Numbered from the stretch's first letter, positions 121-52,621 are shown. The stretch: DNA of 64,000 nucleotides from a virus (IMGVR_UViG_3300042922_000911:31823-95822); one strand, 5' to 3'. Program-made: numbers and translations. The notes: generated by a model from the letters alone, not told the origin.

Positions 121-998
121 TGCCCGAGCAGTTTCTTACACAGGAACAGCGCCAGGATATGTATCGGCGCATCTTTGCGGCGATTCCTCGCACCTTCCTC
201 GACCCCAAGCACCCCGATAACGAGCTGATTGTCGGGGCGATCGCCTACGCCGTGGCCTACACCGAGGCCCACTGGCTCGAAATCGAGCGCGAACAGTTCC
301 TCGACACGGCAACGATCGACGGCCTGACCCGCTTCGGCAACTGGTTCGGCGTGCCGGTCGAGAACGGCGAAGACGTGGAAGTGTACCGGCAGCGGCTTCA
401 ACAGGCGCTTTACGGCCCGCGTCAAACCATCAAGGCGATCGAGAACGTCGTCGGCGCGGCCACGGGGCTGACCGTCAGGGTTCATGAGGTCGGCCGCGAC
501 ATTGTGACCATGAACCGGGGGGCCTGGACCGGCAAGAAGCTCCTGGGCGAAAGGTACTGCTGGGCGGTCTTTGAGGTCGTCACCGAGGGGCAAACGAACA
601 AGGTCGTGAAGTTCATGGACCGCATTCGCGCCGCCGGCACGCGCTGGCGGCACATCGAGCGCGTCTATCACTCGATCCTGCACGACCTCGCGCCCGGCGG
701 CGTGATCAGCCGCGAGCGCACGAAACACTGGTCGCTCGAGTTCCCCGAGATTCCCTTCCCGCTCTTCCCCGCGACGGCCAACCGCGAACACCTCGCGGCC
801 CGTGGCTCGATGTGGGGCCGCGACTTCACGAAGCACTCTTACCGGCACGTCGAGCGGGCGCAGCTCATTCGGCCACTGGACGTTACACAGGAAGAAACGG
901 AACACACAGTCCTGTGTAACTTCTTGCCTGACGACGCCCCGCTCTTCGCCTGGAACGATTCGGCGAGCCTGTGGGATGAATCCCGCTGGGCCAACTAG
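120..998 (+). CDS. Baseplate wedge / tail protein I-like
   Basis: Motif FLDTATIDGLTRFGNWFGVPVENGEDVEVYRQRL and RIRAAGT typical of P2 gpI / Mu gp48-like wedge proteins; tail context. Confidence 0.7.
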   Translation: MPEQFLTQEQRQDMYRRIFAAIPRTFLDPKHPDNELIVGAIAYAVAYTEAHWLEIEREQFLDTATIDGLTRFGNWFGVPVENGEDVEVYRQRLQQALYGPRQTIKAIENVVGAATGLTVRVHEVGRDIVTMNRGAWTGKKLLGERYCWAVFEVVTEGQTNKVVKFMDRIRAAGTRWRHIERVYHSILHDLAPGGVISRERTKHWSLEFPEIPFPLFPATANREHLAARGSMWGRDFTKHSYRHVERAQLIRPLDVTQEETEHTVLCNFLPDDAPLFAWNDSASLWDESRWAN

Positions 999-1034
999 GT
1001 TACACAGGAAAGACGTTACACAGGAGGACGCCCC

Positions 1035-3635: not shown

Positions 3636-5894
3636 ATGGCCTACAATCCCGAATCCCCCTTCGCCGTCCCCGGCTTCGCGCTCGAGCCCCTGTTGCTCGA
3701 GGACGTGGGCGACCCCGCTGCGGGGCCGTCGGCCAACCTGAAACAGGCCTTCGACGTGTTGCGCCGGTTCAGGGGCTACCAGACGACGAACGCGGCCAGG
3801 AACGCCCTCGCTGACCCACAGCCCGGCGACTTCGTGCTGATGCTCGCAAGCGGTGCGCGGCTGCGCGTGGACGTGTATTACACAGGAAACGGCTGGACCC
3901 CTTGGGGCGACACCCCGGCCGGGGCGCACACGCGCCTGACGCCGCTCGTCGAGAACCCCACAGGCAGCGGCCGGTACGATCTCTTCGGCTCGGGGTTGCA
4001 TGAGCGCGTCTTCGTCGAGCGCATCCCCCAATTTGAAGGCGTCGAGCGGGATTACACCGTGGATACGGCCACGACCCCATGGCAAGTCGTCTTCAACGAG
4101 GGTAAGAAGCCGCTCGAGGGGCGCACGGTCTTCGGGGCCGTGGCGCAACCGGACCTCACCAGCACGAACGCCGACACGCTTTTGGGCGCGCTCCCCGACA
4201 AGGGGCAGCTCGGCGGGGGCGTGGTCGTGCGCCAGGCCAACGGGACGATCGAGGGCGTCGGCGGCTCCAACGCCAACAGCCTCGACGGCTACGATTCGCT
4301 CGTTTCCCCTGGTCACGCCCCCAACAAGATCCCCGTTCACGACGACGACGGCAACCTCGACGCCACCACCCTCGGCGGCTTCGCGCCCTCGGGCGGCAAC
4401 GTCGGCTCGCGGGTCGTGGTGCGCGGGGCCGACGGCTCGATCGCGGGCTACGGCGGCACCGGCGGCGTCAACGGCGACACCCTCGACGGCTTCGACACCG
4501 TGGTAAGCCCGAGCCACGCGGCCGACAAGGTGCCGGTTCACGACGAGCTCGGCGGCCTGGACGCCACCACGCTCGAGGGCGCTGCGGCCTCGACCGCGGC
4601 AACCGCCGACGCGATCGCCAAGCGCGACGGCAGCGGGGCGATCGCCGGGGCATCGAGCGACAAAGACACCGTGGACGGCTACACGACGGCCGTCAGCCCC
4701 ACGCACACGGCCGACACCATCCCCGTTCACGATGCCGACGGCAACCTCGACGCCACCACCCTCGGCGGCGCGGCCCCCGACACGGCCGCGATCGCCGGGG
4801 CGATCGTCAAGCGCAACCCAGACGGCACGATCACGGGCCTGTCGAGCGACAAGGACACCGTAGACGGCTACACGACGGCCGTCAGCCCCACGCACACGGC
4901 AAGCACCATCCCGGTTCACTCGGCGACCGGCGGCCTGGACGCCACGACCCTCGGCGGGGCCGCGCCCTCGGCGGTCGTCGCCGGCAACACGATCGTCAAG
5001 CGCGACGGGTCGGGCGGAATCGCTGGCGTGAGCAGCGACGCGGCGACCCTCGACACCTTCGACACCGTGGTTTCGCCCACGCACACGGCGAGCCGCATCC
5101 CGGTTCACGACGCCGACGGCAACCTCGACGCCACAACCCTCGGCGGGGCCGCGCCGGCCACGGCCGCCACGGCGAACGCCATCGTCAAGCGCAACGCCGA
5201 CGGCACCATCACCGGGGCGGTTCTGACGACCGTGGACGGCTACAACACGGTCGTTTCCCCGACCCACACCGCCAACAAGATCCCGGTTCACTCGGCTGCC
5301 GGTGCGCTCGACGCCACCACCCTCATGGGGGCGCTCCCCGCCACCAGCGGCCCCGACACGATCCTCAAGCGCAAGGCCGACGGCACGATCGAGGGCATCA
5401 CGGCGAGCCCCGGCAAGCTGGAATTGGTCTATTACGGCTACATGGCGGCCGACAAGCAGATCGCGGCGTCGGGAACCACGGGCTTCCTGTGTAACACCGA
5501 GGTCGTCGATACCCTCGGCCTCACCTGGACGACCAGCGGCGGCAAATACTACTTCACGATGCCATCGGGCAGCACGGGCGAATACCTCGTCGTCTTTGGG
5601 CACGCCATGAACGCCATGAGCTCGGGCGTGATCACCATCGGCATGGGCTTTACGGAGTTTGACACCGGCATGGGCGACTACGACCCGGCGAACGATCGCG
5701 TCATCGGCCATTACAGCTCCAGCCGCGCCGACGCCTGGACATTGAGGTTCATTCAATGCCACCGGGTAAAGCTGACGGCGGGCGAGCGGTGGGGCGTGTT
5801 CAACGCCAATATCACCGGCATCACGCGCGGCATCAGCGTCAAGTGGCTCGCCGGGCAAAACAACACCTTCATTCGCATTTACCGAATCCTGTAA
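3636..5894 (+). CDS. Tail fibre B, paralog of fibre A with a different C-terminal head
   Basis: N-terminus and repeats align with 1422-3626; the C-terminal ~150 aa diverge. Confidence 0.75.
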   Translation: MAYNPESPFAVPGFALEPLLLEDVGDPAAGPSANLKQAFDVLRRFRGYQTTNAARNALADPQPGDFVLMLASGARLRVDVYYTGNGWTPWGDTPAGAHTRLTPLVENPTGSGRYDLFGSGLHERVFVERIPQFEGVERDYTVDTATTPWQVVFNEGKKPLEGRTVFGAVAQPDLTSTNADTLLGALPDKGQLGGGVVVRQANGTIEGVGGSNANSLDGYDSLVSPGHAPNKIPVHDDDGNLDATTLGGFAPSGGNVGSRVVVRGADGSIAGYGGTGGVNGDTLDGFDTVVSPSHAADKVPVHDELGGLDATTLEGAAASTAATADAIAKRDGSGAIAGASSDKDTVDGYTTAVSPTHTADTIPVHDADGNLDATTLGGAAPDTAAIAGAIVKRNPDGTITGLSSDKDTVDGYTTAVSPTHTASTIPVHSATGGLDATTLGGAAPSAVVAGNTIVKRDGSGGIAGVSSDAATLDTFDTVVSPTHTASRIPVHDADGNLDATTLGGAAPATAATANAIVKRNADGTITGAVLTTVDGYNTVVSPTHTANKIPVHSAAGALDATTLMGALPATSGPDTILKRKADGTIEGITASPGKLELVYYGYMAADKQIAASGTTGFLCNTEVVDTLGLTWTTSGGKYYFTMPSGSTGEYLVVFGHAMNAMSSGVITIGMGFTEFDTGMGDYDPANDRVIGHYSSSRADAWTLRFIQCHRVKLTAGERWGVFNANITGITRGISVKWLAGQNNTFIRIYRIL
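4165..5405 (+). repeat. ~180-bp coding tandem repeat, about 6-7 units, in fibre B
   Basis: Same repeat family as in fibre A. Confidence 0.85.
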
Positions 5895-6001: not shown

Positions 6002-7264
6002 ATGGCGAACGAGCATCCCGCAAGCACCATGCCCACTACCTTCGCGACTGACGCGGAAGTAGCAGCGGCCATCACCGCGCACAACAACGCCTTTCACGCG
6101 CAGGACATTCCGCAGCGCCCCCGCCGTCGCAACAGCGTCGAGGCGGGGCGCGTCAGCGCGGCCGATGGCCTGCCCAACTTCATCGAGGCGGGCGCGGGCC
6201 TGAAAGCGACCCTGCGCGGTGCCGCCGTGCCGGCGGTCTTCAACTTCGCGGCGGGCTACGACCAGGGGCGACCCGTCGATAACCGCGTGACGATCGACGA
6301 GGACCTGTCGAACCTGTGGACGCTCACGGCGAACGCGACGAATTACCTGTTCCTCGAGCGGCAGAGCGACAACACGCTCGTCCCCTTGGCCTACACCGTC
6401 AGGCCCTCAGACGGCATGACGCTCCCCGCCACGGCGGCGCTCAACCAGCACCACTACGTCATTCCCGAGGGGCGCATGTACGTCTGCACGCAGGCCTCGA
6501 CCGGCGGCGGCAGCTCGAAAGTCAACGCGGCCACCACGGCGAACGCCCAATCGGGCGGCGCGCAGGGCGGCTACCCGGCGTCGAACGCCTACGACACCAA
6601 CGGCGCGAGCGGCTGGCGCTCGTCGCAGCTCGGGACCATGGTCTTCGATCGCGCCTGGATCGGTCAGGTCTTCGCCACGCGCAAGCGCATCACCGAGGTA
6701 GAAATTACACAGGAAACAGCCTCCAACAACCGCATTACGAGCTGCAAGGTCGAGGTGAGCGACAACAACTGGGCCACGGCCACCACGCTCGGGACGTTCC
6801 CCCTGGTCGGCGGCTACAACAAGATCACCATCCCCTCGCCGAGCCTGGGCCAGTCCATTCGCGTGAAAGCGAACGCCAGTACGGGTTCTTCGACGCCCTG
6901 GATCGTCTTCACGGTCAAGTTCAACGAGGACGTGCCGATCGTCGGCAACCCGCCGGTCTTCGCGACCAAGGAGCGCGTCTGCGTGGGCGAGGCCGTCACC
7001 GGCGCGACCTCAGTCACCGGAACGACGGGCTACGCCCTCAACGGCGAGTACGCGACCGGCCGGCGCGCGCTCAGCCCCGGCGTCTTGAACACCATCAAGC
7101 ACGCCCTCGGCACGACCAGCGCGCACCTGACCCTGCGCGGGGCCACGGCTGCCGGCGGCGCGCTCGGGCCGATCACCTACACCAGCATGGACCACCTGAC
7201 GCTCAACCTCACGCCTGACGGCTCGGTCGTCGAGGGCGAGGCGATCGTCACGCGCGGCTATTAG
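6002..7264 (+). CDS. Tail protein with discoidin/F5-8 type C-like carbohydrate-binding domain
   Basis: ASNAYD...SGWRS...AWIGQVF...ITEVEI...CKVEVSDNNW pattern; RBS AAGGAAGG. Confidence 0.6.
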   Translation: MANEHPASTMPTTFATDAEVAAAITAHNNAFHAQDIPQRPRRRNSVEAGRVSAADGLPNFIEAGAGLKATLRGAAVPAVFNFAAGYDQGRPVDNRVTIDEDLSNLWTLTANATNYLFLERQSDNTLVPLAYTVRPSDGMTLPATAALNQHHYVIPEGRMYVCTQASTGGGSSKVNAATTANAQSGGAQGGYPASNAYDTNGASGWRSSQLGTMVFDRAWIGQVFATRKRITEVEITQETASNNRITSCKVEVSDNNWATATTLGTFPLVGGYNKITIPSPSLGQSIRVKANASTGSSTPWIVFTVKFNEDVPIVGNPPVFATKERVCVGEAVTGATSVTGTTGYALNGEYATGRRALSPGVLNTIKHALGTTSAHLTLRGATAAGGALGPITYTSMDHLTLNLTPDGSVVEGEAIVTRGY

Positions 7265-12119: not shown

Positions 12120-12608
12120 ATGAGCATCATTGAAACGGTCACGACGGCCGTGCAGGGCCTTTCGGGGTTCCCGCCTTTCCTCGGCCTGATGGCGCTCGCC
12201 GCGCTCGACACCGCCGTTCTCGTCTGGGCCGCGTGGCACGCCCATGAGCTCGACAACACCGAGATCACCGACGGCATGCAGAAGTTCGCGCTGGTCGTGG
12301 GCGTCTTCATCCTCGGCCAGTCGCTCGTCACGACCTCGCCCATGCTCGCGTTCTTCGTCGATCCGCTTTACGCGGCGGCGGCCGTGAACGAGGTGCTGTC
12401 GATCCTCAAGAACGTGCGCCTGGGGCTCGAGGCCCAAGGGAAGCCCGTGCCGATCTTCGTGGGCGTGCTGACCGGCAGGCTCTCGCAGTTCCAAGAAGGC
12501 TTGCTGCCCGCCGACTTCGCGGCCGCCGCGGCGACGCCCGGCCCCACAGCGCCCCCGGCGATCGCCGCCGACCCTGTTACACAGGAAGGGCACGACCAGG
12601 GCGAATGA
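12120..12608 (+). CDS. Holin (TcdE / phage holin 4-like)
   Basis: Multiple hydrophobic helices; LD.....G..K...NE.LSIL.N...G.PVP signature; directly upstream of endolysin. Confidence 0.75.
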   Translation: MSIIETVTTAVQGLSGFPPFLGLMALAALDTAVLVWAAWHAHELDNTEITDGMQKFALVVGVFILGQSLVTTSPMLAFFVDPLYAAAAVNEVLSILKNVRLGLEAQGKPVPIFVGVLTGRLSQFQEGLLPADFAAAAATPGPTAPPAIAADPVTQEGHDQGE

Positions 12609-12722
12609 CCGGGCTTCCTGTGTAACACCCGAGAGCGTTACACAGGAAGCCGACCCCGACCCCGCATTACACAGGAAACCCCCGACGCTCGCCGCAAAGA
12701 CGCCCCCGGCTCGTTACACAGG
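12577..12722. repeat. Cluster of five TTACACAGG sites between holin and endolysin
   Basis: 12577, 12638, 12667, 12714 forward; 12617 reverse. Confidence 0.9.
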
Positions 12723-12730
12723 AGCCGCAC

Positions 12731-13447
12731 ATGACCACCTCGAAAGCCGCCAAGGCCACGACCCCCGCGCCGTTCTCGCTCGCCACTGACCTGACCGACG
12801 AGTTCGCCAAGGGCGTTCAAAACGTCGTCTGGAACGGCGACACGCTGAACCTCAAGCACTCCAACGACCAGAAGGGCATGGCCACGGGCAAGATCCTCGG
12901 GCTGTACTTCCACTGGCCGGTGACGGACTACAACGACATTTACAACAGCTACCACCTGGGCGTGCCCTACTTCCCGAAGCACGACAAGGCGGGTCTGACC
13001 AAGAACCTCAACTTCTCGCAGCTCGGCAAGCAGCTCTGGAAGCGCAACACCGGCCACATCGGCATGAGCCTGTGCGGCATGTGGGATGCCTCGATGGGGC
13101 CTGACGGCAAGCTGCACGCCGGGCCGTTCCCGCTGAAAGACGCTCAGCTCAAGGTCGCCGCGCGCGCCGGCGCGGAGTTCTGCATTCTGCACGGCATCGA
13201 CCCGCGCGGCAGCCACCAGGCCCCCGAGTACGCCTACAAGGGCGGGGCGCTCGTTCCGACGGGCAAGACCATCTGGATTCCCAACGTGACCGATCACGCC
13301 TGGTTCGGCAAGCGCGACGGGTACGGGTCGTGGGATTGCGGCCCCTACACGCCCATCATCTTGCAGCAGCTCTTCAAGGACTACGACGAGCTCAAGAAGA
13401 CCCCCGAGGCCGATCGGAAGTTCCTGTACCGGGAGCTTCTGAAATGA
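12731..13447 (+). CDS. Endolysin, N-acetylmuramoyl-L-alanine amidase (Amidase_2-like)
   Basis: LYFHW, YHLGV, RNTGHIGMSLCG, QL, VTDH...DC zinc-amidase pattern; follows the holin. Confidence 0.7.
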   Translation: MTTSKAAKATTPAPFSLATDLTDEFAKGVQNVVWNGDTLNLKHSNDQKGMATGKILGLYFHWPVTDYNDIYNSYHLGVPYFPKHDKAGLTKNLNFSQLGKQLWKRNTGHIGMSLCGMWDASMGPDGKLHAGPFPLKDAQLKVAARAGAEFCILHGIDPRGSHQAPEYAYKGGALVPTGKTIWIPNVTDHAWFGKRDGYGSWDCGPYTPIILQQLFKDYDELKKTPEADRKFLYRELLK

Positions 13448-14154
13448 GCGCGCTCGACGAGCTCAAGCGCGCCCGGCTGACCTCGGTTCTGATCGTCGCG
13501 GCCTTCCTCGTCGGCCTGGTCGTCGCCTCGCTGGTCAAGTGCCATCTGCCACCGCCCGGCGATCGCCAGCCCCTTCGCCCCCTGCCCGCTGTGACCGACG
13601 GCCCCGCGCCGTCGGCCACGCCCCCCGCGGCCACCGCGACGGCGGCCGTCAAGACAAGGGTCGTGATCGAGCGGCCCGTGCCCCGGCCGGTTTCCTGTGT
13701 AACAAGCATCCCGCAGAATGTTACACAGGAAGCCTCGAGCGGGGCGCACCTCCCCGACCCGGCGATCGCCCCCGGTGCGTCGGGCATCCTCGCTCAGCCG
13801 CTCGAGGTGGAACGCATCATCATCGAAACCGAGGGCATCAGCACGGCCGTCGCCCCGGTGCCGACCCCGCCTCCCCCTGTGTACGTTACAACGGATGCCC
13901 GGCCGGGTGCCTTCGGCGTCCTGGTCGGCACCATGCCGGGTGTCGTGGCGCTCGACTACCAGTTCGCTCGAGGCGAGCTTTTGGGGCACACCATCGGGGC
14001 CTCAACAATCGTTAACGGGCGAATGTTGGGCGTCGGTGGCGGAATTTCCCTAGTCGAAATCCACGACCGTTTATACTTGGGCGCAGGCGCATACCAAGAG
14101 TATAAGCTGATTCCCGACCCTGGCCTGTACATCGGGGCGGGGTGGCGTTTTTAG
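13444..14154 (+). CDS. Putative spanin-like membrane protein
   Basis: N-terminal TM helix, Pro-rich linker, C-terminal amphipathic beta strands ending GLYIGAGWRF; ATGA overlap with endolysin. Confidence 0.5.
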   Translation: MSALDELKRARLTSVLIVAAFLVGLVVASLVKCHLPPPGDRQPLRPLPAVTDGPAPSATPPAATATAAVKTRVVIERPVPRPVSCVTSIPQNVTQEASSGAHLPDPAIAPGASGILAQPLEVERIIIETEGISTAVAPVPTPPPPVYVTTDARPGAFGVLVGTMPGVVALDYQFARGELLGHTIGASTIVNGRMLGVGGGISLVEIHDRLYLGAGAYQEYKLIPDPGLYIGAGWRF

Positions 14155-14563: not shown

Positions 14564-15057
14564 TGCCGGGGCCGATTGCGCCCGGCGGCGCGGCCCTTTC
14601 GGAGATCACGCCCTACGTTCTGGCCGTCTACGGCCTGATCGGGGGCTTGTTCGTTTTCATCTTCAACGAGCAGAAGAAGCGAATCGACACGGCCGAGGCC
14701 AAGATCACGACGATCGAGCGCGACGCCACCGACAAGCGCGACGCGCTGCGCCGGGAGCTGCGCGACGAGCATGACAAGTTCACCGCCAAGCAGGCCACGG
14801 AACACAAGGAGCTGATCGCCAAGGTCGAGAAGGACCGCAAGGAGCTTGAAGAGAAGCTGGACAGCCACATGAAGACCGTTGTCGAGCGGCTGGACGGCAT
14901 CAAGGAAAGCATGAACACCTGGGCGATCAACCTGACGCGCGACTACGTGACCCGCCAGGAGTTCCGCGAGCTGATCGCCGTGGTTCCTCGGGCCGCTGGC
15001 GGCCACGCGCAACCCGGTCATACCGGCCCGCTCCCCGGATCTGGCCATGGGACCTAA
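14563..15057 (+). CDS. Single-TM coiled-coil protein (lysis-associated?)
   Basis: TAATG coupling; N-terminal TM then charged coiled coil ending RDYVTRQEF. Confidence 0.6.
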   Translation: MPGPIAPGGAALSEITPYVLAVYGLIGGLFVFIFNEQKKRIDTAEAKITTIERDATDKRDALRRELRDEHDKFTAKQATEHKELIAKVEKDRKELEEKLDSHMKTVVERLDGIKESMNTWAINLTRDYVTRQEFRELIAVVPRAAGGHAQPGHTGPLPGSGHGT

Positions 15058-15535
15058 AAACGAAGAGCAAATTTACACCGACATTCAAACCAGGCTGGTG
15101 CGCTTTTTTGTCGAGGGCGTGCCGCAGGCGTTCACCCGTCAGATCGCGGTGAACGCCGCTCTTCGTGCGTCTGGGCGCTCAAAGGCGCGTGGCTCGGCCA
15201 TCCCGGCAAAGCTTCGGGAGTGGCGCGACACCATCCAGCTCTTGTACCTCGCGGCCGTCATGGAGGCAGATCCGAAGTATGAAGCGTTCCCGCGAAGTGG
15301 CGAGTTTACAGGCCCCGTCGAGTTAAGCATTGTAATCTGGGGGAGCCAGGCCGACGGCACCAACGTCCTGAAAGAGATCGAGGACGCGCTGAATTTTGTT
15401 GCGTACCCTGACGATAGGGTTATTGTTAAGGGGGGCTTCGCTTTCGGCGACCGTATGCTATCAGAACGAGGGGGTTTGTTGCGTAATGTAACATGTGTGC
15501 GGCAAGGCGTTGACATATCGGTTCAGTTTCGGTGA
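15047..15535 (+). CDS. rusA: RusA-like Holliday junction resolvase
   Basis: F.VEG.P N-terminus, GPVELSI, D..NVLK.IEDALN..AY.DD..I catalytic motif. Confidence 0.75.
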   Translation: MGPKNEEQIYTDIQTRLVRFFVEGVPQAFTRQIAVNAALRASGRSKARGSAIPAKLREWRDTIQLLYLAAVMEADPKYEAFPRSGEFTGPVELSIVIWGSQADGTNVLKEIEDALNFVAYPDDRVIVKGGFAFGDRMLSERGGLLRNVTCVRQGVDISVQFR

Positions 15536-15539
15536 TAGT
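15510..15539 (+). promoter_or_regulatory. sigma70-like promoter for the replication operon
   Basis: TTGACA 15510-15515, 18 bp, GATAGT; start of an AT-rich intergenic region. Confidence 0.45.
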
Positions 15540-15607
15540 AACAGTGTGGCAACGGTTGCTCGTTACCGAATCAGTATTTACAACGGTTTACGCACCAAGT
15601 TAGTGAC

Positions 15608-15640
15608 AAAAAAAGGAGCCGACCTTCGTCTGCCCCTTTC
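15608..15640 (-). terminator. Intrinsic terminator, leftward
   Basis: Minus strand AAAGGGGC-A-GAC GAAG GTC-G-GCTCCTTT followed by a T run. Confidence 0.55.
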
Positions 15641-15679
15641 GGAATGACCAGTTTGGTGTTAGCTTTGGTTTACCTTGAA

Positions 15680-15733
15680 CAAATAAAGAAGCCCCCCGCA
15701 TCGGCCCCTTAAACCTGACGCGGGAGACTTCTT
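15680..15733 (-). terminator. Intrinsic terminator, leftward
   Basis: Minus strand AAGAAGTCTCCCGCGTCAGG...CCGATGCGGGGGGCTTCTT-TATTTG; C/A mismatches on + become G-U pairs on -. Confidence 0.55.
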
Positions 15734-15826
15734 CGGAAAAGGCCACCACAAACCCATTCGGTGCAGGATCTAGCGCAAGCTAGGTTCAGCCTCGGACGGC
15801 TTTGTGTTGGTTAAACCACAGATCAA

Positions 15827-15855
15827 GGTATACCACGGCTTCGCGCCAAATTCAA
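15827..15855 (-). promoter_or_regulatory. Leftward sigma70-like promoter
   Basis: Minus strand TTGAAT-N17-TATACC with extended -10 TG. Confidence 0.4.
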
Positions 15856-15907
15856 CCGTCGATTCAACGAAAAGCCGGGGGGCGGCCCCCCGTAAGGAGT
15901 TCGGAAG

Positions 15908-16225
15908 ATGGCAGATTCGCAAGCGAGCAACCAGGCCTCGGGCAGTTTCGCCCAGGTCAGCAACGAGTTCCTTGCCGCGCTGATGAGCGTGCAGTTCACC
16001 GCCCGTGAGCTGCGCGTCATGCTCTACTGCGTGCGCCAAGGCGGGTACGACAATGACAAGCTCCGGCTGTGTCAGGCAACCTCCCTGTTTCCCCACAACG
16101 CCAAGTCCACCATCGACCGGCTGGTGAAGGGGCGCGTACTGGTCGCCAACGGCAACCGCTACGACCTCAACACCGACCCCTCGACGTGGGCGCTCGACGT
16201 GGTGAAGGCAAGCAGGTCCGCATGA
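15908..16225 (+). CDS. Stand-alone lambda O-like N-terminal (winged-helix) protein
   Basis: FAQVSNEFLAALMSVQFTARELRVMLYCVRQ resembles the Phage_rep_O N-terminus; RBS AAGGAG. Confidence 0.6.
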   Translation: MADSQASNQASGSFAQVSNEFLAALMSVQFTARELRVMLYCVRQGGYDNDKLRLCQATSLFPHNAKSTIDRLVKGRVLVANGNRYDLNTDPSTWALDVVKASRSA

Positions 16226-19139: not shown

Positions 19140-19175
19140 GCTCATAGGTATTTTGTTACACAGGAGAGCCGGAAA

Positions 19176-20989: not shown

Positions 20990-20993
20990 ACCC

Positions 20994-21446
20994 ATGACCA
21001 CGACGACCCCTTACGTCGCGACCGTGTGGCGAGAAGTCGAGTTTCACGCCAGCCACCAGCTTCCCTACCACGACGGCAAATGCGCGCGGCCCCACGGCCA
21101 CAACTTCAAGATGCGCGTGAGCGTCACCGGCCCCGTGCAGGACGACGACCCCGCGAATCCCGAGAGCGGCATGGTGATCGACCTCGCCAAGCTCGGCGAC
21201 CTGATGAAGACGGCCGGGGAGCTGTACTTCGACCACCACAACATCAACGAAACGACGGGCATCCTGTGCCCGACCTCCGAGCGGCTGGCGTGGTACGTCG
21301 GCATCTACGCCAAGCACCACATCGAGGCCCGCGACGGCGCGGCCTACGTGTCGAGCGTGAGCGTCCAAGAAACCGACCGATCGGGGGCGATCGTCGCCTT
21401 TGTCGGCAAGGGCGTCGAGAGCGGGAGGGAAGCGGCATGGGTGTAA
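20994..21446 (+). CDS. queD: 6-carboxytetrahydropterin synthase
   Basis: FHASHQLPYHDGKCARPHGHN, GMVIDL, FDH, PTSE, V.ET. Confidence 0.93.
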   Translation: MTTTTPYVATVWREVEFHASHQLPYHDGKCARPHGHNFKMRVSVTGPVQDDDPANPESGMVIDLAKLGDLMKTAGELYFDHHNINETTGILCPTSERLAWYVGIYAKHHIEARDGAAYVSSVSVQETDRSGAIVAFVGKGVESGREAAWV

Positions 21447-22108: not shown

Positions 22109-22113
22109 GAAGG

Positions 22114-29673: not shown

Positions 29674-29751
29674 CGCCTTAACGCTACACAGGAAATGTTT
29701 CGCCGTTTCGCCCAGGCATGAGCCCTTAACTCTGCTGAAAGGAAAAATAGA

Positions 29752-37468: not shown

Positions 37469-37833
37469 GGCGATCGCCCCGCCAGCGCGTGACCCGCTCG
37501 CGTGCCCGGCGTGTGGGCATAGCCCGGTGCATTCGTACTACGGCAAGAGCTGCCCCGATTGCGGGTGGCGCGAAAGGGGCCTCCCCGACGAATGAGCGCA
37601 AGAACGCCGGGCGACGCCGATCGCGCGGCGTTCTGACGTTCGGCCCCCGAATGAGCATATATAGAAAAGGCCTGTTGTCTCGGCTGTCGATGTTACACAG
37701 GAAAGTTACAAATCGTTGTGCTGTGTGCCCTAGCGGATATGTGTGGTGGCGGATATTATGGGGAAGTCAGGCGAGGTTGTTGCCCCGCCCGGCAGGCCAC
37801 CACAACCCCTTATCTAAATGGAGGACACCCCTT

Positions 37834-39233: not shown

Positions 39234-39645
39234 CCCCGCCCTTCCGTTCCCCGAGTGCTACGACGCCGCGCTCGACCAGCTCGGCACGGCCGCGACCCCG
39301 GCCCTCGTCGCTGCGTTCAACAGCATCCAGCGCGAACAGCTCGCGCTCAACTTCCCCGGCGGCGACCCCGGCGAGGAAATGGTCGGGCGCTTCCTCGACG
39401 ACGGCTTCGGTCAGCCCCGGTGGCTGCGGTGGCTCGACGAGGCCGACGCCGCCACGGGCTTCGGCGTCAAGGAGTGGGAAGGCCGCGAGGAAGACCACGC
39501 CGAGGGCTGGAACCACGGCAAGGGCGACCACAAGCGGGGCGATCGCGACCTCGACGTGTGGGGGCGTGACGGGGCGTATGCCTCGGGCTACCGGGCAGGC
39601 TGGACAGCGGCCGACGAAGCGGCCAAGGGGGCAGCGCAGGCATGA
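39226..39645 (+). CDS. Acidic hypothetical protein
   Basis: Coupled ORF; AYASGYRAGW motif. Confidence 0.6.
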   Translation: MRNPALPFPECYDAALDQLGTAATPALVAAFNSIQREQLALNFPGGDPGEEMVGRFLDDGFGQPRWLRWLDEADAATGFGVKEWEGREEDHAEGWNHGKGDHKRGDRDLDVWGRDGAYASGYRAGWTAADEAAKGAAQA

Positions 39646-40844
39646 CCCCTGAAACAACCAAGGTATGTAGCTGCTGCGAGATCGCGCGGCCGGTGTCGGA
39701 AGACCCGGCCGTTTCGGGCTTTGCGCGCAAGGGCAAGACCTATCAGACGTGGTGCCGCGAGTGTTCAAGCATCAGCGCGAGCCGCACCAAGGCCAACCGT
39801 GACCGCTCACGGGGCAAGTACAAGCCGATCCAGCGGTGCAACGTGTGCAGGGTCGAGCGCGAATGGCGGGCATTCGACCCTGACCCCTCAGACCCCGCGC
39901 AGCTCTTGCCGACCTGTTGGATGTGCGAGCGCCGCGCGGAGGCCCGCGACAGCTTCACCAAGCGGCGACGCTTCACCCGTGAGGAATTGGCCGCGCTCGC
40001 CGAGAAGAGGCGGCGCGAGCAGTTCGACGAATCCGCGAACGCCGTGCGCCTCGCCGCGCCGATCACGGTCAACCGGCTACAAGTCGAGGACAGCCCGCCC
40101 CGCGTCCCCGATGGGGCGTTCCGCGACGCCGAGGCCCGCGACGTGATCGTGCTTTTGGGTCAGGAGCTTCGCGCGGCCCGTGCCGAGATCAACCGCCTGC
40201 GTGACGAGGTGGCCTTTCGTGACCTCCAAATCGAAGAGCTGCAAGCCACGGCCGCGCCGCCAGCGACGACACCAAGCGCGAGCGAGGCGATCGCCGTCGG
40301 TCACGCCGCAAGCGAGGCCGATCAGGAGGCCGACCAGGCCGACGACCAGGACGACGAGCCGGAAGGCGACTTTGAAGACGCCGCCGACGCGCTCGAGGCC
40401 GAGGCCCGCAGCCTGGGCGTGCTGGAAAATGAGCCGCCCGCGTGGTATGCCGAGGTTGAAAACCTGACGACCGGCCAGCTCCCGCCCAAGCTGAAAGAGG
40501 CGATCGTCGAGGCCTCGCGCGTGCTGGTCGAGGCCGGGCGCGACCCGAAGCTCGCCGTCGATAACGTCGTGGGCGCGGCATTCGGGGCGATCAAGGCACT
40601 CCCCGGCGACGTGGTGAATCAGGCGCGGGTCGTGAAGGCGCTCGCGCGCATCATGCTCGACCCTTACAACGCAGGGGAGCGGCGTCACTGGCCCTATGAA
40701 GGGCAAATGGGCGTCTACAAGGCCCGCGCGGGCAAGGTGCGGATTCTGTACCAGCCCGAGACAGGCATTCAGAAGGTGCCCACAATCCTGAAAATCGGCT
40801 ACCGGAAAGAAGTTTACGGAGGTTCGACCTATGGGAGCAACTAA
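39642..40844 (+). CDS. Zn-finger / coiled-coil protein with C-terminal RelE/ParE-like domain
   Basis: Two pairs of CxxC; C-terminal GVYKARAGKVRILY...ILKIGYRKEVY. Confidence 0.65.
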   Translation: MTPETTKVCSCCEIARPVSEDPAVSGFARKGKTYQTWCRECSSISASRTKANRDRSRGKYKPIQRCNVCRVEREWRAFDPDPSDPAQLLPTCWMCERRAEARDSFTKRRRFTREELAALAEKRRREQFDESANAVRLAAPITVNRLQVEDSPPRVPDGAFRDAEARDVIVLLGQELRAARAEINRLRDEVAFRDLQIEELQATAAPPATTPSASEAIAVGHAASEADQEADQADDQDDEPEGDFEDAADALEAEARSLGVLENEPPAWYAEVENLTTGQLPPKLKEAIVEASRVLVEAGRDPKLAVDNVVGAAFGAIKALPGDVVNQARVVKALARIMLDPYNAGERRHWPYEGQMGVYKARAGKVRILYQPETGIQKVPTILKIGYRKEVYGGSTYGSN

Positions 40845-41067
40845 GAAGCAAGTCGTCGGGCGCGGCCCCGGCCGCCCGCCCAAGGCCGACGCCAAGCGCG
40901 GCAAGAACATGCGCCTGTCGCCGTCGGCCTGGGCGCAGCTCGACGCGATCGCCGACCACTTCGGCGGCAACCGCACCGCAGCCGCCGAGGCCGCTTTCGG
41001 CAAGCTCTTCGCCGAGCTTGTTACACAGGGGAAAGGCCCGGCGACCAAGGCTATTACACAGGATTGA
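40831..41067 (+). CDS. Small ribbon-helix-helix-like DNA-binding protein
   Basis: GPGRPP...KNMRLSPSAWAQLDAIADHFGGNRTAAAE; RBS GGAGG; two TTACACAGG sites in its 3' end. Confidence 0.6.
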   Translation: MGATKKQVVGRGPGRPPKADAKRGKNMRLSPSAWAQLDAIADHFGGNRTAAAEAAFGKLFAELVTQGKGPATKAITQD

Positions 41068-41140
41068 GATCCGGTATGATGGAAAAGCACGGCCCCTTAA
41101 GCCTTTCAGCCTGTTACACAGGGATAGCCTGTTACACAGG
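41021..41140 (+). repeat. Cluster of four TTACACAGG sites
   Basis: 41021, 41054, 41114, 41132. Confidence 0.9.
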
Positions 41141-44562: not shown

Positions 44563-44611
44563 AATTACACAGGACGTTGTTACACAGGCTCGTTTCGTAG
44601 GAGGTGCGCTC

Positions 44612-45789: not shown

Positions 45790-46082
45790 CGGGCTGCAAG
45801 CGGTGCCGGGAGGCCGAAGACGAGCTATCCACGGCCAATCTGATCATCGAGGAAAAGACCGCGACGATCGCCCGCTGGGAAGAGCTGGCCGAAGGCTACC
45901 TCGAGCGCGCGCAAAAGGCCGAGGCCGAGGTCAAGCGCATGCAGGCCTGCTTCACCGGGAGCGCGGCGGCGTTCGCCAAGCAGGGCATGCCCGAGCTCGC
46001 CGTGATCATGGAGGCAGCTCGCGACGGCCTCATGCCCCCGGCCCTGATGCCCGAAGACTGGCAGGAGGCCCCCGGCGAATGA
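45786..46082 (+). CDS. Hypothetical coiled-coil protein
   Basis: ATGA overlaps on both sides. Confidence 0.55.
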   Translation: MTGCKRCREAEDELSTANLIIEEKTATIARWEELAEGYLERAQKAEAEVKRMQACFTGSAAAFAKQGMPELAVIMEAARDGLMPPALMPEDWQEAPGE

Positions 46083-46327
46083 AGCTCGATCTGCCGACCC
46101 TCAAAACCTATCTGTGGATGCCGCGCCGGTGCGCCCCCGAGAACAAGCGCCCGGCGGCCGAGGGCTACGACGGCTGGTTCTGCCCCGGCGTCTACATGAA
46201 GGCGCACCCGACCGACCCCGCCCTCGCGCTCTTCATCTGCCCCCATTGCGGCCGGGAGGAATGGACGTATCCGACCTACCAGACCAATGCGAAGCGGTGG
46301 CGGCCCGGCGATCGCGACCTGTATTGA
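46079..46327 (+). CDS. Small Zn-ribbon hypothetical protein
   Basis: CPHCG; ATGA overlap. Confidence 0.5.
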   Translation: MKLDLPTLKTYLWMPRRCAPENKRPAAEGYDGWFCPGVYMKAHPTDPALALFICPHCGREEWTYPTYQTNAKRWRPGDRDLY

Positions 46328-46400
46328 CGTTCCTGTGTAACGTCGGCCGCGCCTCGCCCGGCTTCCTGTGTAACACGGTGTAAATTCTTGGCGACCGCGT

Positions 46401-46439
46401 GGCAGAAACGCCGCGCGGTTTTTTCGCGCCTGGTATTGT
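46401..46439 (+). promoter_or_regulatory. Phage-specific promoter GGCAGAAA-N25-TATTGT for the portal operon
   Basis: Preceded by two reverse TTACACAGG sites (46332, 46365). Confidence 0.65.
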
Positions 46440-48317: not shown

Positions 48318-48391
48318 GCCTCGCCGTTACACAGGAAGGCCGTGCCAACAGTGGGCGGGCCAGGACACAGCCGTTACACAGGAGAAGAGAC

Positions 48392-51600: not shown

Positions 51601-52621
51601 CGGCACGGTTCACCCCGAGAAGCTGGCCCAGGCCGTCGCCAAGCACATGGACTGGAAGCGGCAGCAACCGGCGGGCCGGCTCTTCCCCGAAGAGTACGCC
51701 CACATGAAGCTGCATGACGCGGCAAGCAAGGAGAAAGACCCCGCGAAGGCGCGCGCCATGCGGTCGGCCGCGAGCCTCGCGGGGAGCTTCCCCACGGGCG
51801 AAGCGCACCACGACGCCCTGCTCGCGCCCCTGATGGAGGAACAAGCCCACAACTACGACCGGGCGGCACAGGCCGACGCGGCCAACGCCGACCCCGAGAA
51901 GCGCGGCAAGCGCGTCGGCAAGGATGCCCAATTCGCCATGCACCACACCGTCGTCAGCTCCAACCTGACGGCGATCGCCAAGCACCGGATCGCGACCGGG
52001 CAAGAGCCCTTCCCCATCCAGTCGGCGGGGTCGGTCAAGCTGCACCGCGCCGCAGGCCACAAGCTGCCCGACAACGCCACGGGCATCGGGGTCGATAAGC
52101 CGAAAGACACCGATAGCGCCCCGGCCGCAGCTCCAGAGCCCAAGGGCGGCGCGGTCGTTCCGGCGGGGCCGCAGGCTGTCGCCCAGGCCGACGCCCCCGG
52201 CGCGGTCGCTACACAGGAAACCGGCTCGAGGGCTGTTACACAGGAAGCCGAGCAGGGTGGCGCGGCCGTTACACAGGAAGACGCTACACAGGAAGCCCCC
52301 GGCGGGGCCGTGGTGCCCGCGCCGAAGCCCGGCGCGGTGACGGAGGGGGGCGCAGATGGCGACGCGGCAGACGTTGGGGGCAATCCTGCTGATGGCGGGT
52401 CTTCTAGCGACGATCGAGGCGCGGGGGAGGACGCCGCACCCGGCGGGGATAGCGGCGGCGATCGCCCTGACGGCGGCCCTGTACCTGGCGGCGGCGTGAA
52501 GCCCGCGGCGGGCAAGAAGGACGACAAGCATGGCCAGCACATCGGCAAGTTCGTCAGCGGCCTCATGGACGTGCTTCGCAAGGTGAACGCCGAGGTGGAC
52601 AGCGAAAACCTCAAGTCGTAG
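48692..52621 (+). CDS. NUDIX hydrolase - MuF head morphogenesis fusion with long C-terminal cargo
   Basis: Nudix box GGREANETPLGGALRELEEETG; MuF motif DDKVCPVC...PLHVRCRC; lies after the portal. Confidence 0.75.
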   Translation: MGARAKDWRLKPGVRVVLVDDAGRVLLLRRPDAEELYGGHWNLPGGGREANETPLGGALRELEEETGLTGTPTGASVPFTFPGGTGRAFLVRHPAGRLNVEKRESDAAQWFYPGDLPHNLMPPTAEIVTLLAGTGGDRPMADLHLTADRLHVEQWVAEAVRPWLEAAVKLKAKRLTLTKALDQEGLDELAMRRMRQLRRPGYEPVEGRDLWVSAPTGDDDEGEEVLFRSLVRARKMGMAEAARAILTDARAGQVPEGHQRGYRKKTLERLRSTARRTVRLVNATTEKRLAPLALEAEGADVFTVMQKLYDMSRAETIAIDVVAQGYAEGVMEVLAGHGYAFVYPRTMGDDKVCPVCRAREGVKMTIKRFLKAYPLHVRCRCYPHTSPLAEPRALNWRAKKTAKVIMKGLATMETSLMALRALTGEQPPMADLVKAFGGKADPEKLREIAKKRTRGPGGKFAAGKVTPEEIKNIRQKAGMDAGAPPKGTKDHTIHHLGKAAKRERDAQAAADAPVPMQAPGDPTDPKGPTVGPQGPKASTKGAIDDKNPQHLVEAANKALEQLRTLKPGTPEFEHVRTQYEGLRQAVRGWNKSKGESAKPKPVEVPPKPDHFDGELRTPRQFELAAAAATTKEDAIALGKHFEAVAQRDNLGSDYKDTWNEIKAAIAKLPTREEVEHGKAEKQAKLEGIKAKSGAPSTPAPGPAPKPKPKKEDKPQEFTAAEPTEEEKKANAEAIAAVPHGPGADFASAPPAEDKPKPKSKQPHEMTFSEYRDSYHADVSGSRPENHKAIISRALERGETVPDHVLDEHGGHGRAVVEGMKTYNAPQTEEMKQEEGRIAAAEAADGRKPAKPDPADGGGEGAAAELPEGVTRNGDGYDLGPDADAFEVPATVKKPDGSDYESFGDQASDEMHLGRYQPGYGSAAWSGYYDHDEETGAKSWDLEDARQILKLDHAIGWKQASKCLEAAKNDDGTVHPEKLAQAVAKHMDWKRQQPAGRLFPEEYAHMKLHDAASKEKDPAKARAMRSAASLAGSFPTGEAHHDALLAPLMEEQAHNYDRAAQADAANADPEKRGKRVGKDAQFAMHHTVVSSNLTAIAKHRIATGQEPFPIQSAGSVKLHRAAGHKLPDNATGIGVDKPKDTDSAPAAAPEPKGGAVVPAGPQAVAQADAPGAVATQETGSRAVTQEAEQGGAAVTQEDATQEAPGGAVVPAPKPGAVTEGGADGDAADVGGNPADGGSSSDDRGAGEDAAPGGDSGGDRPDGGPVPGGGVKPAAGKKDDKHGQHIGKFVSGLMDVLRKVNAEVDSENLKS
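52209..52292 (+). repeat. Four (T/C)TACACAGG sites inside a CDS, read as (V/A)TQE
   Basis: 52209, 52236, 52269, 52284. Confidence 0.9.

Follow-up and report, generated by a model that had tools for sequence, protein, structure and literature searches.

An uncultured soil phage with a genome of about 96 kb carries 56 copies of a single nine-base word, TTACACAGG, 48 forward and 8 reverse in its whole 95,822-bp record (IMGVR_UViG_3300042922_000911). The sites are under strong selection as DNA and the word is private to this phage. We tentatively read it, at somewhat short of an even chance, as a private operator or roadblock array recognized by a phage DNA-binding protein. The window analyzed comprises bases 31823-95822 of the record (64,000 bp; the ends of the record overlap by 98 bp), and coordinates below refer to the window unless genome positions are given. 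The phage is present in one DNA run of a soil metagenome and no RNA runs containing it were listed. A literature search for the word returned matches inside primers only.

A preliminary description of the window had counted 36 copies by hand (30 forward, 6 reverse), and an exact search gave the same 36, with every coordinate and strand as claimed. In 100 dinucleotide-preserving shuffles of the window the word averaged 0.08 copies and never exceeded 1. Within the window no copy lies past 52277, in agreement with the reported absence beyond 52.3 kb, and in the whole genome the word-free arc extends from 84,100 round to 6,915, about 18.6 kb. The strand bias across the record (6:1, at a density of one copy per 1.7 kb) has a binomial P of 5e-8, and the reversed (read-backwards) pattern has 0 copies in the whole record. 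Reverse copies too are in excess, by about 100-fold or more (8 against approximately 0.04 expected), and enrichment in both orientations favors recognition of duplex DNA. The informative word is (C/T)G-TTACACAGG-A-A, with about 12 informative positions, and it is very sharp, as only seven one-mismatch 9-mers exist. The four variants described earlier are real, namely CTACACAGG at 29684, 52209 and 52284 (forward) and GTACACAGG at 13876 (reverse). The sites and variants in the window are as follows.

136-144, forward: single site in the first codons of a baseplate-like gene (120-998)
883-1024, both strands: cluster of four, 883 (forward), 911 (reverse), 1000 (forward) and 1016 (forward); 883/911 are an inverted pair at the end of gene 120-998; 1000 and 1016 are 16 bp apart, the last supplying the AGGAG Shine-Dalgarno of gene 1035-1418
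3878-3886, forward: single in-gene site, 11% along gene 3636-5894
5486-5494, reverse: single in-gene site, 82% along gene 3636-5894
6705-6713, forward: single in-gene site, gene 6002-7264
12577-12722, both strands: largest cluster, five sites (forward, reverse, forward, forward, forward) between fibre-region gene 12120-12608 and the lysis cassette; 12617 (reverse) and 12638 (forward) form an inverted repeat with 15-bp arms; the last site is the Shine-Dalgarno of the endolysin-like gene at 12731, first of the lysis cassette
13694-13729, both strands: inverted pair (reverse, forward) in the Pro/Thr-rich linker of gene 13444-14154
13876-13884, reverse: one-mismatch variant GTACACAGG
19156-19164, forward: single site, Shine-Dalgarno of the thymidylate-synthase gene 19176-20201
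24588-24755, forward: two in-gene sites 159 bp apart, gene 24386-25033
25805-25813, forward: single in-gene site, ribonucleotide reductase gene 25216-27648
28554-28609, forward: pair 47 bp apart in the spacer between an intrinsic-terminator-like hairpin and gene 28643
29684-29692, forward: one-mismatch variant CTACACAGG, 50 bp past the start of a TGGCAGAAA element
34056-34115, forward: pair 51 bp apart in the Lys/Pro-rich linker of gene 33806-34756 (putative small terminase, without a family match)
37693-37701, forward: single site in the 579-bp spacer ahead of gene 37834
41021-41140, forward: four sites, two in the final codons of a 78-aa gene, the others in the spacer ahead of gene 41181
44565-44588, forward: pair 15 bp apart ahead of gene 44612
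46332-46373, reverse: tandem pair spaced by 33 bp, ahead of a TGGCAGAAA element and portal gene 46479
48327-48382, forward: pair 47 bp apart, the second being the Shine-Dalgarno of gene 48392
52209-52292, forward: exact sites 52236 and 52269 with a CTACACAGG variant on either side (52209 and 52284), all within a repetitive (A/V)TQE linker close to the end of a 1309-aa NUDIX-headed gene

Three of these groups have marked hairpin potential: 883-1024 (-16.8 kcal/mol, z -4.3), 12577-12722 (-26.5 kcal/mol, z -7.7) and 13694-13729 (-25.5 kcal/mol, z -8.6).

The earlier proposal that selection acts on the DNA rather than on the protein is borne out by codon shuffling, rare codon usage and alignment to relatives. 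In the codon-preserving shuffle that had been proposed as a check, the 23 in-gene copies compared with an average of 0.71 and at most 4 over 500 synonymous shuffles. The tripeptide VTQ is indeed written in rare codons, since 14 of its 16 occurrences are spelled GTTACACAG, with GTT making up 11.6% of Val and ACA 3.0% of Thr codons, and the presence of both orientations within one coding sequence was confirmed at 883/911 and 13694/13721. In gene g31, the peptide SVTQA is common to the phage and its relative G1, and the word was created by three synonymous changes; in gene g30, TQ stands where the relatives have RD, with no indel. In placing the word, the phage has changed its codon choice and in places the amino acids themselves. 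The sites originated by substitution, with no involvement of insertion. Insertion or excision footprints were ruled out, as the sites align to the relatives without gaps.

The 56 sites fall into 28 clusters spread over 77 kb. Clustering at particular junctions, which had been noted by eye, was upheld, with 28 neighbor gaps below 200 bp against 6.0 under random placement. Centre-to-centre spacings of 13, 15, 33 and 47 bp recur (with P about 0.002 even against a stringent two-class null) and no helical phasing of the spacings was seen; tandem copies approach to within 10-16 bp and pairs lie 13-60 nt apart. Intergenic DNA makes up 11% of the genome but holds 33 of the 56 sites (P 4e-18). Only 15 of the 45 gaps of at least 20 bp carry sites, while 23 sites (41%) are built into genes. 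The four reported overlaps with ribosome-binding sites (before 1035, 12731, 19176 and 48392) were confirmed and two more lie outside the window, at genome positions 26578 and 29245; altogether, seven of the 56 sites stand 0-13 nt ahead of a start codon, and in each of the five that serve as the Shine-Dalgarno the sequence is AGGAG. Clustering, junction placement and spacings fit a protein-binding array better than chance, promoters or an origin. Origin iterons were considered separately and rejected: the gene for the lambda-O-like initiator (16069-17523) contains GGGGACTTTCAAACTCCCCA-type repeats of its own at about 16700-16870, and no TTACACAGG occurs between 13729 and 19156.

The orientation of the sites is less simple than had been supposed. 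The preliminary description likened them to stoperators oriented with transcription; in fact, 39 sites are co-oriented and 15 anti-oriented with the local gene. Within the rightward-transcribed part, 39 of 46 copies are on the sense strand. The polarity of the word stays constant across the leftward gene block (genome 2.2-12.0 kb), where nine of ten copies are anti-oriented, while the GC and AT skews flip there. Replication-linked polarity was ruled out, as the skews follow transcription. Five reverse copies stand 21-46 bp from a forward copy.

Outside this genome, we found no comparable array. Two relatives of 157 and 121 kb, with portal proteins about 53% identical, have 0 copies of the word; closer portal relatives (P0002-P0005) reach 55-59% identity. 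A near-identity search of phage and plasmid collections gave no relative, and a single-sequence search of IMG/VR with the portal gave no match. Tandem motif-pair scans of IMG/VR and metagenomes revealed no word array among the matches listed, which were mostly repeats in low-GC coding sequence whose periods were multiples of 9, about as many as chance would give; the few high-GC matches among those listed had no protein in common with this phage. An inverted-pair scan returned ten contigs, and each of the five that were checked had a lone hairpin only. The host is probably a cyanobacterial-lineage soil bacterium, and in 401 sampled Cyanobacteriota genomes the 11-mer reached at most 5 copies per genome, like its reversed control, with no array. 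As the word is private, its reader should be private too, i.e., phage-encoded.

These observations lead us to propose that (C/T)G-TTACACAGG-A-A would be the recognition site, on the phage double-stranded DNA, of one phage-encoded sequence-specific protein. The sites would be set at chosen gene junctions, beside ribosome-binding sites and promoter-like elements, and inside genes where needed, and the reader protein would hold down or time the transcription of the rightward structural, lysis, replication and packaging genes. The one-way bias would reflect orientation-dependent action, as for L5 stoperators, and the leftward block, whose transcription the sites face, would escape the block. The reading by a protein, the transcriptional effect and its dependence on orientation are what we infer from the arrangement of the sites. 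A duplex-DNA reader explains without extra assumptions that reverse copies are enriched and paired with forward ones. Several observations weigh against an operator array. The orientation in the leftward block violates the stoperator rule and calls for an additional assumption. Moreover, degenerate copies are almost lacking; protein operators are usually less sharp, and the pattern is also compatible with base pairing or an enzyme site. The seven sites that double as Shine-Dalgarno sequences would fit an RNA-level role as well.

The closest precedent is found in cluster A mycobacteriophages, whose repressors bind more than 20 asymmetric 13-bp sites at promoters and in short intergenic spaces, with stoperator orientation following transcription in both arms (PMC9283540); these operators and stoperators are read by a monomeric, two-domain HTH immunity repressor of the L5 gp71 type (PMC9283540, PMC6550527). 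The present array shares with cluster A stoperators an asymmetric word of about 13 bp, dispersal in more than 20 copies (here 56), a predominant orientation and lineage specificity (absence from the host being a feature of the stoperators). In contrast to stoperators, 41% of the present sites are in genes, and they form tandem and inverted clusters with preferred spacings. The genome is also large and myovirus-like, the host is probably non-actinobacterial, and no L5-type repressor or integrase was seen in the approximately 80 of 101 proteins scanned. The analogy fails on orientation, because the sites of the leftward block do not flip with transcription.

Phage P1, with a genome of about 94 kb, offers a second comparison, as its C1 repressor reads approximately 15-20 asymmetric 17-bp operators at promoters. 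Both arrays consist of an asymmetric word scattered genome-wide, the P1 sites being single or overlapping inverted pairs. The present array has 56 sites, many of them in genes or at ribosome-binding sites, and family scans found no C1 homologue. Pfam and PHROGs searches of about 80 of the 101 predicted proteins, which could miss distant homologues, gave no repressor, integrase or partition protein, so there is no sign of a temperate cycle needing global silencing.

Three readers had been put forward in the preliminary description: a ribbon-helix-helix (RHH) protein, an HTH terminase small subunit and a ParB-like domain. Only the first retained some support, from a structural model. It is a 78-aa forward-strand protein (40831-41067) in which a basic arm, GRGPGRPPK, is combined with a strand and two helices in an RHH-like arrangement. 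AlphaFold2 placed the helices at residues 31-44 and 48-65 (pLDDT 61). Modeled as a homodimer, the protein gave an ipSAE of 0.50 against 0.00 for the best control, a mark reached by 20 of 30 proteins solved as same-chain pairs and 1 of 23 solved as single chains. Contacts agreed between runs at 94% or more, partner pLDDT was at least 65, and residue 26 contacted residue 26, as in an antiparallel ribbon. As RHH dimers are common among solved structures, this score may reflect mere likeness. Foldseek gave no match at E<=0.001, its non-significant rows being mostly RHH proteins, and a sequence search of solved structures returned nothing meaningful. A single homologue (P0122) was found among 1.8 billion representatives, and a search of IMG/VR with P0122 gave no match. 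RHH repressors such as omega of pSM19035, MetJ, Arc and CopG read arrays of short direct or inverted repeats; as small symmetric dimers, they are able to bind a short asymmetric unit repeated in head-to-tail or head-to-head order. The candidate resembles them in its predicted fold, whereas their arrays are contiguous (7-11 bp register) and confined to one promoter or a few, and here there are 28 clusters over 77 kb. Nothing ties the 78-aa protein to the word; four forward sites lie at its gene and just past it. We name it the leading candidate reader, the only one with (weak, modeled) fold support, while considering it improbable that this particular protein is the reader.

The other two proposals did not hold. 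The putative terminase small subunit (33806) has only a sub-threshold HTH_10 match (E 0.066) and homologues in both word-less relatives. In the 2903-aa protein said to carry a ParB-like domain, Pfam at E<=0.001 found LPD1 only over the whole protein, and nothing at E<=0.1 in residues 1-700. The suggested likeness to a parS half-site likewise falls away, as parS is a 16-bp palindrome whereas the word is non-palindromic, the sites are dispersed, and no ParB domain was found in this protein or the others scanned. A SpoVS-like protein was rejected as a private reader because it is conserved in both relatives without the word, and the protein atlas had nothing useful for a 229-aa DUF6788 protein.

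A role at the RNA level is possible but doubtful. The word would then act as GUUACACAGGAA in rightward mRNAs, either as the site of a CsrA/RegA-like translational regulator bridging paired sites, the last one over the Shine-Dalgarno, or by base pairing with RNAs carrying the complement CCUGUGUAAC, with leftward early mRNAs and perhaps a terminator-ended RNA at 46328-46425 as partners. The sense-strand excess in the rightward part, the seven sites close before starts, five of them with AGGAG as the Shine-Dalgarno, the 13-60 nt pair spacing and an all-or-none sharpness that suits base pairing are consistent with this. In the leftward block, the complement lies 14 nt ahead of two gene starts, as CCTGTGTAAcGGAGGG, and at 46328-46425 two complements are followed by a hairpin plus U6, and the first complement is in a hairpin loop. 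The fold of 46325-46432, however, was not significantly above shuffles (z -1.9), and the recurrent variant (first T to C) would lose a wobble pair. The CsrA SELEX consensus is RUACARGGAUGU, which resembles UUACACAGGA, and some leaders fit the CsrA/RsmA pattern (several GGA-centred RNA sites in a leader, one covering the Shine-Dalgarno), but 15 copies are antisense and many are mid-gene. About 40% of copies are within genes, distant from any start, and for the lone reverse copy at 5486 no RNA role is apparent. Family searches of about 80 of the 101 proteins yielded no CsrA, Hfq or RegA-like family, and an Rfam scan and tRNA search gave no known RNA family and no tRNA. Start-associated sequences of cluster K mycobacteriophages, another analogy raised earlier, are asymmetric 13-bp repeats in which AGGAG replaces the ribosome-binding site; they occur in one orientation, are absent from the host, and lie nearly all 3-7 bp before start codons in the non-structural half only (PMC3203893). 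The likeness holds for the seven sites at start codons and not for the rest, which extend through structural, lysis, replication and packaging genes.

Similarly doubtful is a reading in which the word is no classical operator and instead encodes polarity or pairing across the genome of this one phage. It could be a self-encoded Chi/KOPS analogue with which the phage marks its own DNA, read directionally by a DNA-tracking machine that the phage itself encodes, or an RNA code with two sides: rightward late mRNAs would carry GUUACACAGGAA, leftward early mRNAs the complement beside their ribosome-binding sites, and each transcript class may silence the other by pairing.

We regard it as unlikely that the word is a polar signal for a DNA-tracking enzyme, whether as a Chi-like site restraining the end-processing helicase-nuclease of the host or as a KOPS-like sequence guiding a translocase or the packaging motor, with the word pointing one way along the genome whatever the gene direction. 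Two Chi-rich phages without a recombination module, LLS of E. coli (20 active versus 3 inactive Chi sites, 1 per 1.86 kb) and MD8 of P. aeruginosa (32 versus 0), come close in density and bias (PMC12315714). The resemblance extends to a density of 1 per 1.7-1.9 kb, a bias of 6-7 to 1, independence of gene direction, which leaves the polarity unflipped in the leftward block, and location on the terminase-gene strand, like active Chi in lambda-type maps. Exact-match sharpness fits, and no Rec module or anti-RecBCD gene was found among the approximately 80 of 101 proteins scanned. Chi, in contrast, is the host's own 8-mer and abundant in the host, and known Chi sites are 5-8 nt long and G-rich, whereas the present word is longer, with about 12 informative positions, AT-richer, not enriched in the 401 sampled genomes, and absent as an array from the genomes searched, including other phage contigs among the matches listed. 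Pure polarity does not predict the enrichment of the reverse orientation, mostly paired with forward copies, nor the preferred spacings, and there is no pile-up toward one genome end. If density drove the signal, the least constrained DNA would be expected to fill first, so the use of only a third of free intergenic gaps counts against it.

It is quite unlikely that a site-specific phage enzyme nicks, cleaves or modifies the DNA at the word. In the nicking form, the HNH-like protein 39642-40844 would be guided by the adjoining RHH-like protein to give strand-specific interruptions, as in T5, phiKMV-like phages and Pseudomonas phage tf. The sharp, enzyme-like specificity and one-strand bias are compatible with this, as are the three HNH/EndoVII-like genes, one of which (39642-40844) overlaps the start of the RHH-like gene with four sites after it, and a rich DNA-modification set (DpdA, QueC/D/E and two methyltransferases). 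Known nick consensus sites, however, number 4-14 per genome, compared with 56 here, tandem sites 10-16 bp apart and Shine-Dalgarno use would be unexpected, and known 7-deazaguanine and methyl marks use short motifs.

A promoter element by which a phage factor redirects host RNA polymerase, like T4 late or MotA boxes, is very improbable: the asymmetric word lies mostly in the sense orientation and frequently precedes a gene, and GTTACA resembles a -35 hexamer (with one GTTACA-N18-TATATT match at genome 9246-9275), but no -10-like positions are conserved at a fixed distance downstream, the seven sites 0-13 nt from a start codon are too close for promoters, copies also occur in tandem 10-16 bp apart and mid-gene, and a separate plus-strand-only element, TGGCAGAAA-N26-TAnnnT (9 copies), fits the promoter class better. 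Sigma-70 promoters themselves were rejected, as the whole genome has only one match of at least 10/12, away from any site.

Well-documented dispersed arrays of a one-word operator are confined to a few phage groups (L5-like mycobacteriophages and P1), and the present array is a clean and statistically very strong case in an unrelated, myovirus-like phage. As the word is private and exact, its reading is testable with synthetic DNA and proteins made in vitro, and culture of the host is unnecessary. A polar or RNA-pairing code, if true, would be a form of phage genome organization so far undescribed. If instead a single small protein reads the word, the two would make a compact, orthogonal pair of DNA word and reader, and the operator or roadblock array, if true, would provide a second, independent model of genome-wide transcription control by roadblocks.

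A search of the window for TTACACAGG, the 9-mer word dispersed through this phage genome, returned the 36 copies listed in the preliminary description, with all 30 forward and 6 reverse coordinates matching exactly. Dinucleotide-preserving shuffles of the window held a mean of 0.08 copies and never more than one. The window covers bases 31823-95822 of a 95,822-bp IMG/VR virus record with a 98-bp overlap between its ends. In the whole record, the word occurs 56 times (48 forward and 8 reverse), and the pattern read backwards is absent. Alignment of the 56 copies gave about 12 informative positions, with C or T at -2, G at -1 (45/56) and, on the 3' side of the invariant 9-mer, A in 43/56 followed by A in 33/56; no conservation was seen beyond these. 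The word is unusually sharp: across the genome, only seven 9-mers differ from it by one mismatch. The variant CTACACAGG accounts for three of them, and the four variants noticed earlier all belong to this set.

The phage genome has a GC content of 66%, and no near relative was found in phage or plasmid collections; the portal is approximately 33% identical to SPO1-type portals. We predicted 101 genes with a codon model trained on the phage genome, and about 80 scanned predicted proteins included no integrase, partition protein, repressor family, RNA polymerase or sigma factor. All genes between 12.2 and 93.3 kb of the genome run rightward.

Gene blocks of the phage and copies of a second repeated element
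Genome 2.2-12.0 kb, leftward: genes g3-g23, including beta-clamp, HNH/EndoVII-like and SpoVS-like proteins
Rightward: structural genes (prohead protease, major head protein, tail sheath, 1358-aa tape-measure-like protein, baseplate, and fibre including a DUF4815 protein)
Rightward part of the genome: lysis cassette
Rightward: replication genes (lambda-O-like initiator, DnaC-like loader, SSB, thymidylate synthase)
Rightward: DpdA with QueC/D/E, two DNA methyltransferases, ribonucleotide reductase, PAPS-reductase-like protein
Rightward: large terminase, many small orphans, portal
Rightward: large proteins (1309-aa NUDIX-headed; 2903-aa polyvalent with an LPD1 domain)
Window 5935, 24996, 29633, 46400, 52654 and 62031, and genome 12128, 12779 and 29131, plus strand: TGGCAGAAA element

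A DpdA-like transglycosylase is encoded together with QueD, QueE and QueC homologues, two DNA methyltransferases (one N6-type, one C5) and a PAPS-reductase-like protein at window 20198-22809, 23045-24358, 27679-28509 and 31547-33253; the phage DNA probably carries 7-deazaguanine and methyl modification. An open frame at 62062-64000 runs off the record end and resumes at genome 233-2205, where it encodes a collagen-repeat protein; the next gene product is a concanavalin-A-like lectin protein. The frame is probably a fibre gene lying across the artificial ends of a circular assembly.

Intergenic DNA makes up 10.9% of the genome, though 33 sites lie in it (binomial P 4e-18). Genes hold 23 copies, whereas the codon-preserving control that the preliminary description had proposed, here 500 shuffles that kept every protein and the codon usage of each gene, gave 0.71 on average and never more than 4. 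Nearly all forward copies within genes share one frame, GTT ACA CAG G.., encoding V-T-Q, and 14 of the 16 VTQ tripeptides of the proteome are spelled GTTACACAG, even though GTT and ACA are rare codons in the phage (11.6% of Val and 3.0% of Thr, respectively). Together, the shuffles and the rare-codon spelling uphold the earlier proposal that selection acts on DNA rather than protein. Two relatives found through a portal profile, G1 and G2 (157 kb and 121 kb), show how sites arise. The peptide SVTQA of gene g31 is common to the phage and G1, encoded as TCG GTG ACG CAA GCA in G1 and as TCA GTT ACA CAG GCC in the phage, with three synonymous changes, whereas in g30 TQ in the phage replaces RD of the relatives with no indel. 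Sites were therefore created by point substitutions, some of which also altered the protein, and did not originate by insertion or as excision scars.

The sites group into 28 clusters, of which 10 are singles, 12 pairs, 3 triples, 2 quadruples and 1 a quintet, with 28 neighbour distances below 200 bp versus 6.0 (maximum 14) under random placement. Same-direction neighbours recur at spacings of 13, 15, 33 and 47 bp, each three times (P ~0.002, even when the null preserves one short and one long class), and the DNA between these recurrently spaced sites is unrelated in sequence; no helical phasing was found. For five of the eight reverse copies, a forward copy is found 21-46 bp away, and two such pairs extend into arms of 15-16 bp; the inverted pair GGCTTCCTGTGTAAC...GTTACACAGGAAGCC has a predicted fold of -26.5 kcal/mol (z -7.7). 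Among intergenic gaps of at least 20 bp, 15/45 contain sites; 30 gaps totalling 6.1 kb have none, yet 23 sites are built into genes, so placement is specific and does not simply fill free DNA. The quintet, the largest cluster, is situated ahead of the lysis cassette. Another four sites are found at and after the gene for a 78-aa protein (40831-41067), and a site-free arc of 18.6 kb extends from genome 84.1 kb round to 6.9 kb.

The orientation bias is strong (48 forward versus 8 reverse, P 5e-8) but does not merely track transcription, with 39 sites co-oriented with the local gene and 15 not. Within the leftward block, 9/10 sites are still forward and thus read CCTGTGTAA on the mRNA strand; CCTGTGTAAcGGAGGG is formed twice there, 14 nt upstream of a start codon. 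GC and AT skews flip in this block while the word stays forward; it is therefore the skews, and not the word, that follow transcription. At the divergent junction, sites at genome 12079 (reverse) and 12116 (forward) face outward, along with their genes.

We tentatively favour the view that the word is a DNA-level protein docking array with a transcriptional role. One phage-encoded, sequence-specific protein would dock at the word on duplex DNA and act on transcription of the rightward genes. Duplex recognition would account for the enrichment of both orientations and for the inverted pairs, while the fixed spacings and selective placement suggest a protein-DNA structure assembled at chosen junctions. 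Among documented systems, the repressor of cluster A mycobacteriophages comes closest: as a monomer it binds more than 20 asymmetric sites of 13 bp, located in promoters and in short gaps between genes, and it blocks elongation in one orientation only (PMC9283540). If an orientation-dependent block is present here, forward sites would stop rightward transcription, which takes in the structural, lysis, replication and packaging genes; the leftward block would escape since its sites point the wrong way, and the non-flipping polarity of the word would be accounted for.

The 78-aa protein is the only candidate reader with fold support, although we consider it doubtful that it is the reader. Its AlphaFold2 model (pLDDT 61) combines two helices with a short strand and a basic GRGPGRPPK arm. 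A homodimer model scored 0.50 against 0.00 for the best control, a mark reached by 20/30 proteins solved as one-chain pairs and by 1/23 solved as single chains, but the score may reflect likeness only, because ribbon-helix-helix (RHH) dimers are common among solved structures. Contact agreement between runs was at least 94% and partner pLDDT at least 65, with residue 26 of one chain in contact with residue 26 of the other. Foldseek gave no significant match with the model, the weak rows being mostly RHH proteins, and one homologue was found among 1.8 billion representatives. This homologue, P0122, shares 55% identity with the 78-aa protein and has an identical KNMRL strand.

It is unlikely, though worth weighing, that the word acts at the RNA level. 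Seven sites lie 0-13 nt upstream of a start codon, and at five of these the end of the word, AGGAG as read there, itself forms the Shine-Dalgarno sequence; at the genome 26578 start, it is supplied by the first copy of a pair, read AGGAAGG. These overlaps, the sense-strand majority, the sharpness of the word, its complement beside early-gene ribosome-binding sites and two complements ahead of a hairpin-U6 at window 46328-46425 favour such a role, but mid-gene and lone reverse copies are poorly explained by it, and the word matched no known RNA family. The two complements, CCTGTGTAAC, lie 3' of gene 46079-46327, beyond its stop codon, and are followed by a GC-rich hairpin and T6; the first occupies a hairpin loop closed by 6 bp. 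This region could be a terminator-ended small RNA with two anti-motif seeds, although shuffled sequences fold about as well (z -1.9, not significant).

A Chi- or KOPS-like polar signal would fit a word independent of gene direction, and the density and bias resemble those of Chi-rich phages such as LLS (20:3 bias, one per 1.86 kb; PMC12315714). It does not predict the reverse-orientation enrichment, the fixed spacings or the selective placement, and no genome is known to have the word; we find this explanation distinctly improbable. A nicking or modification target is more improbable still, and a role as promoter element can be set aside almost entirely, given that the DNA downstream of the word shows no conserved -10-like positions, that several copies directly adjoin start codons and that tandem copies are only 10-16 bp from each other. 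A second element, TGGCAGAAA-N26-TAnnnT, fits a promoter class better: its nine copies are on the plus strand only (0 reverse) and precede the protease, portal, ribonucleotide reductase and 2903-aa genes, among others. The copies at 46400 and 52654 lie inside a hairpin followed by a T-run, and the element may be an RNA hairpin instead of, or besides, a promoter. The word was also rejected as replication origin, as the lambda-O-like initiator gene (16069-17523) has its own GGGGACTTTCAAACTCCCCA-type repeats and no TTACACAGG occurs between 13729 and 19156. These iteron-like repeats lie at approximately 16700-16870 within this lambda-O-like/DnaD-like gene, as in lambda's origin, and mark a probable replication origin. 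Just upstream, an 850-bp stretch without a called gene (15058-15907) is overlapped by a RusA-like ORF (15047-15535).

In G1 and G2, where the portal is 52-53% identical and structural genes are largely syntenic, neither the word nor TGGCAGAAA has a copy; both relatives have repeats of their own. In G1, a ~45-bp module, GGGCCCCCAGGAACGGTTTTTT...CTGGATAGTAGATAGTAGGGAG, is present 16 times between early-block genes at 32.3-86.6 kb, nearly all on one strand and each followed by a GC-rich hairpin, probably a terminator-promoter-leader cassette. G1 also has 26 one-strand copies of CAAGGAGAACCGCCATG, a start-associated sequence (SAS)-like conserved translation start region common to the group; among the phage's own leftward early genes (genome 5750-12014), the start region is near-identical from gene to gene, AAGGAGAACCCCC-ATG. 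In G2, about eight copies of a ~60-bp unit centred on GCGCACCTCAAGGGGCCCATCGCGGAGCACGTCGAGAAGCC, all on one strand at 22.2-60.2 kb, may represent either a small mobile unit or a protein segment that is repeated. In IMG/VR and metagenomes, scans for pairs of the word were at chance level among the matches listed, and the contigs checked held no array. The HIP1-like palindrome GGCGATCGCC is about 26-fold above first-order Markov expectation in the phage, with similar enrichment in both relatives (126-136 copies in G1 and 43-46 in G2); GGCGATCGC/GCGATCGCC has 71 copies in the 95.8-kb phage genome. As a portal fragment also matches a Candidatus Sericytochromatia MAG, we sampled Cyanobacteriota, and these observations hint at a host in a cyanobacterial lineage despite 66-71% GC. 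Across 401 sampled Cyanobacteriota genomes, an 11-mer form of the word had at most five copies per genome, like a reversed control, ruling out a host word for those genomes. As the word is private and exact, it points to a private reader that the phage encodes, and away from a host factor.

In its mode of action, the array would most resemble stoperators or the C1 operators of P1. Of the analogies drawn earlier, that to L5 stoperators holds for the dispersed asymmetric sites but fails on the orientation rule, and no L5-type repressor or lysogeny gene was seen, which places the array outside the stoperator family. Only 7/56 sites lie at starts, so the likeness to an SAS was not borne out; nor is the array parS, as had also been suggested, or an iteron system. 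It is a new dispersed array of a single-word site in a new phage lineage, with a global polarity that is not linked to transcription and with fixed pair spacings.
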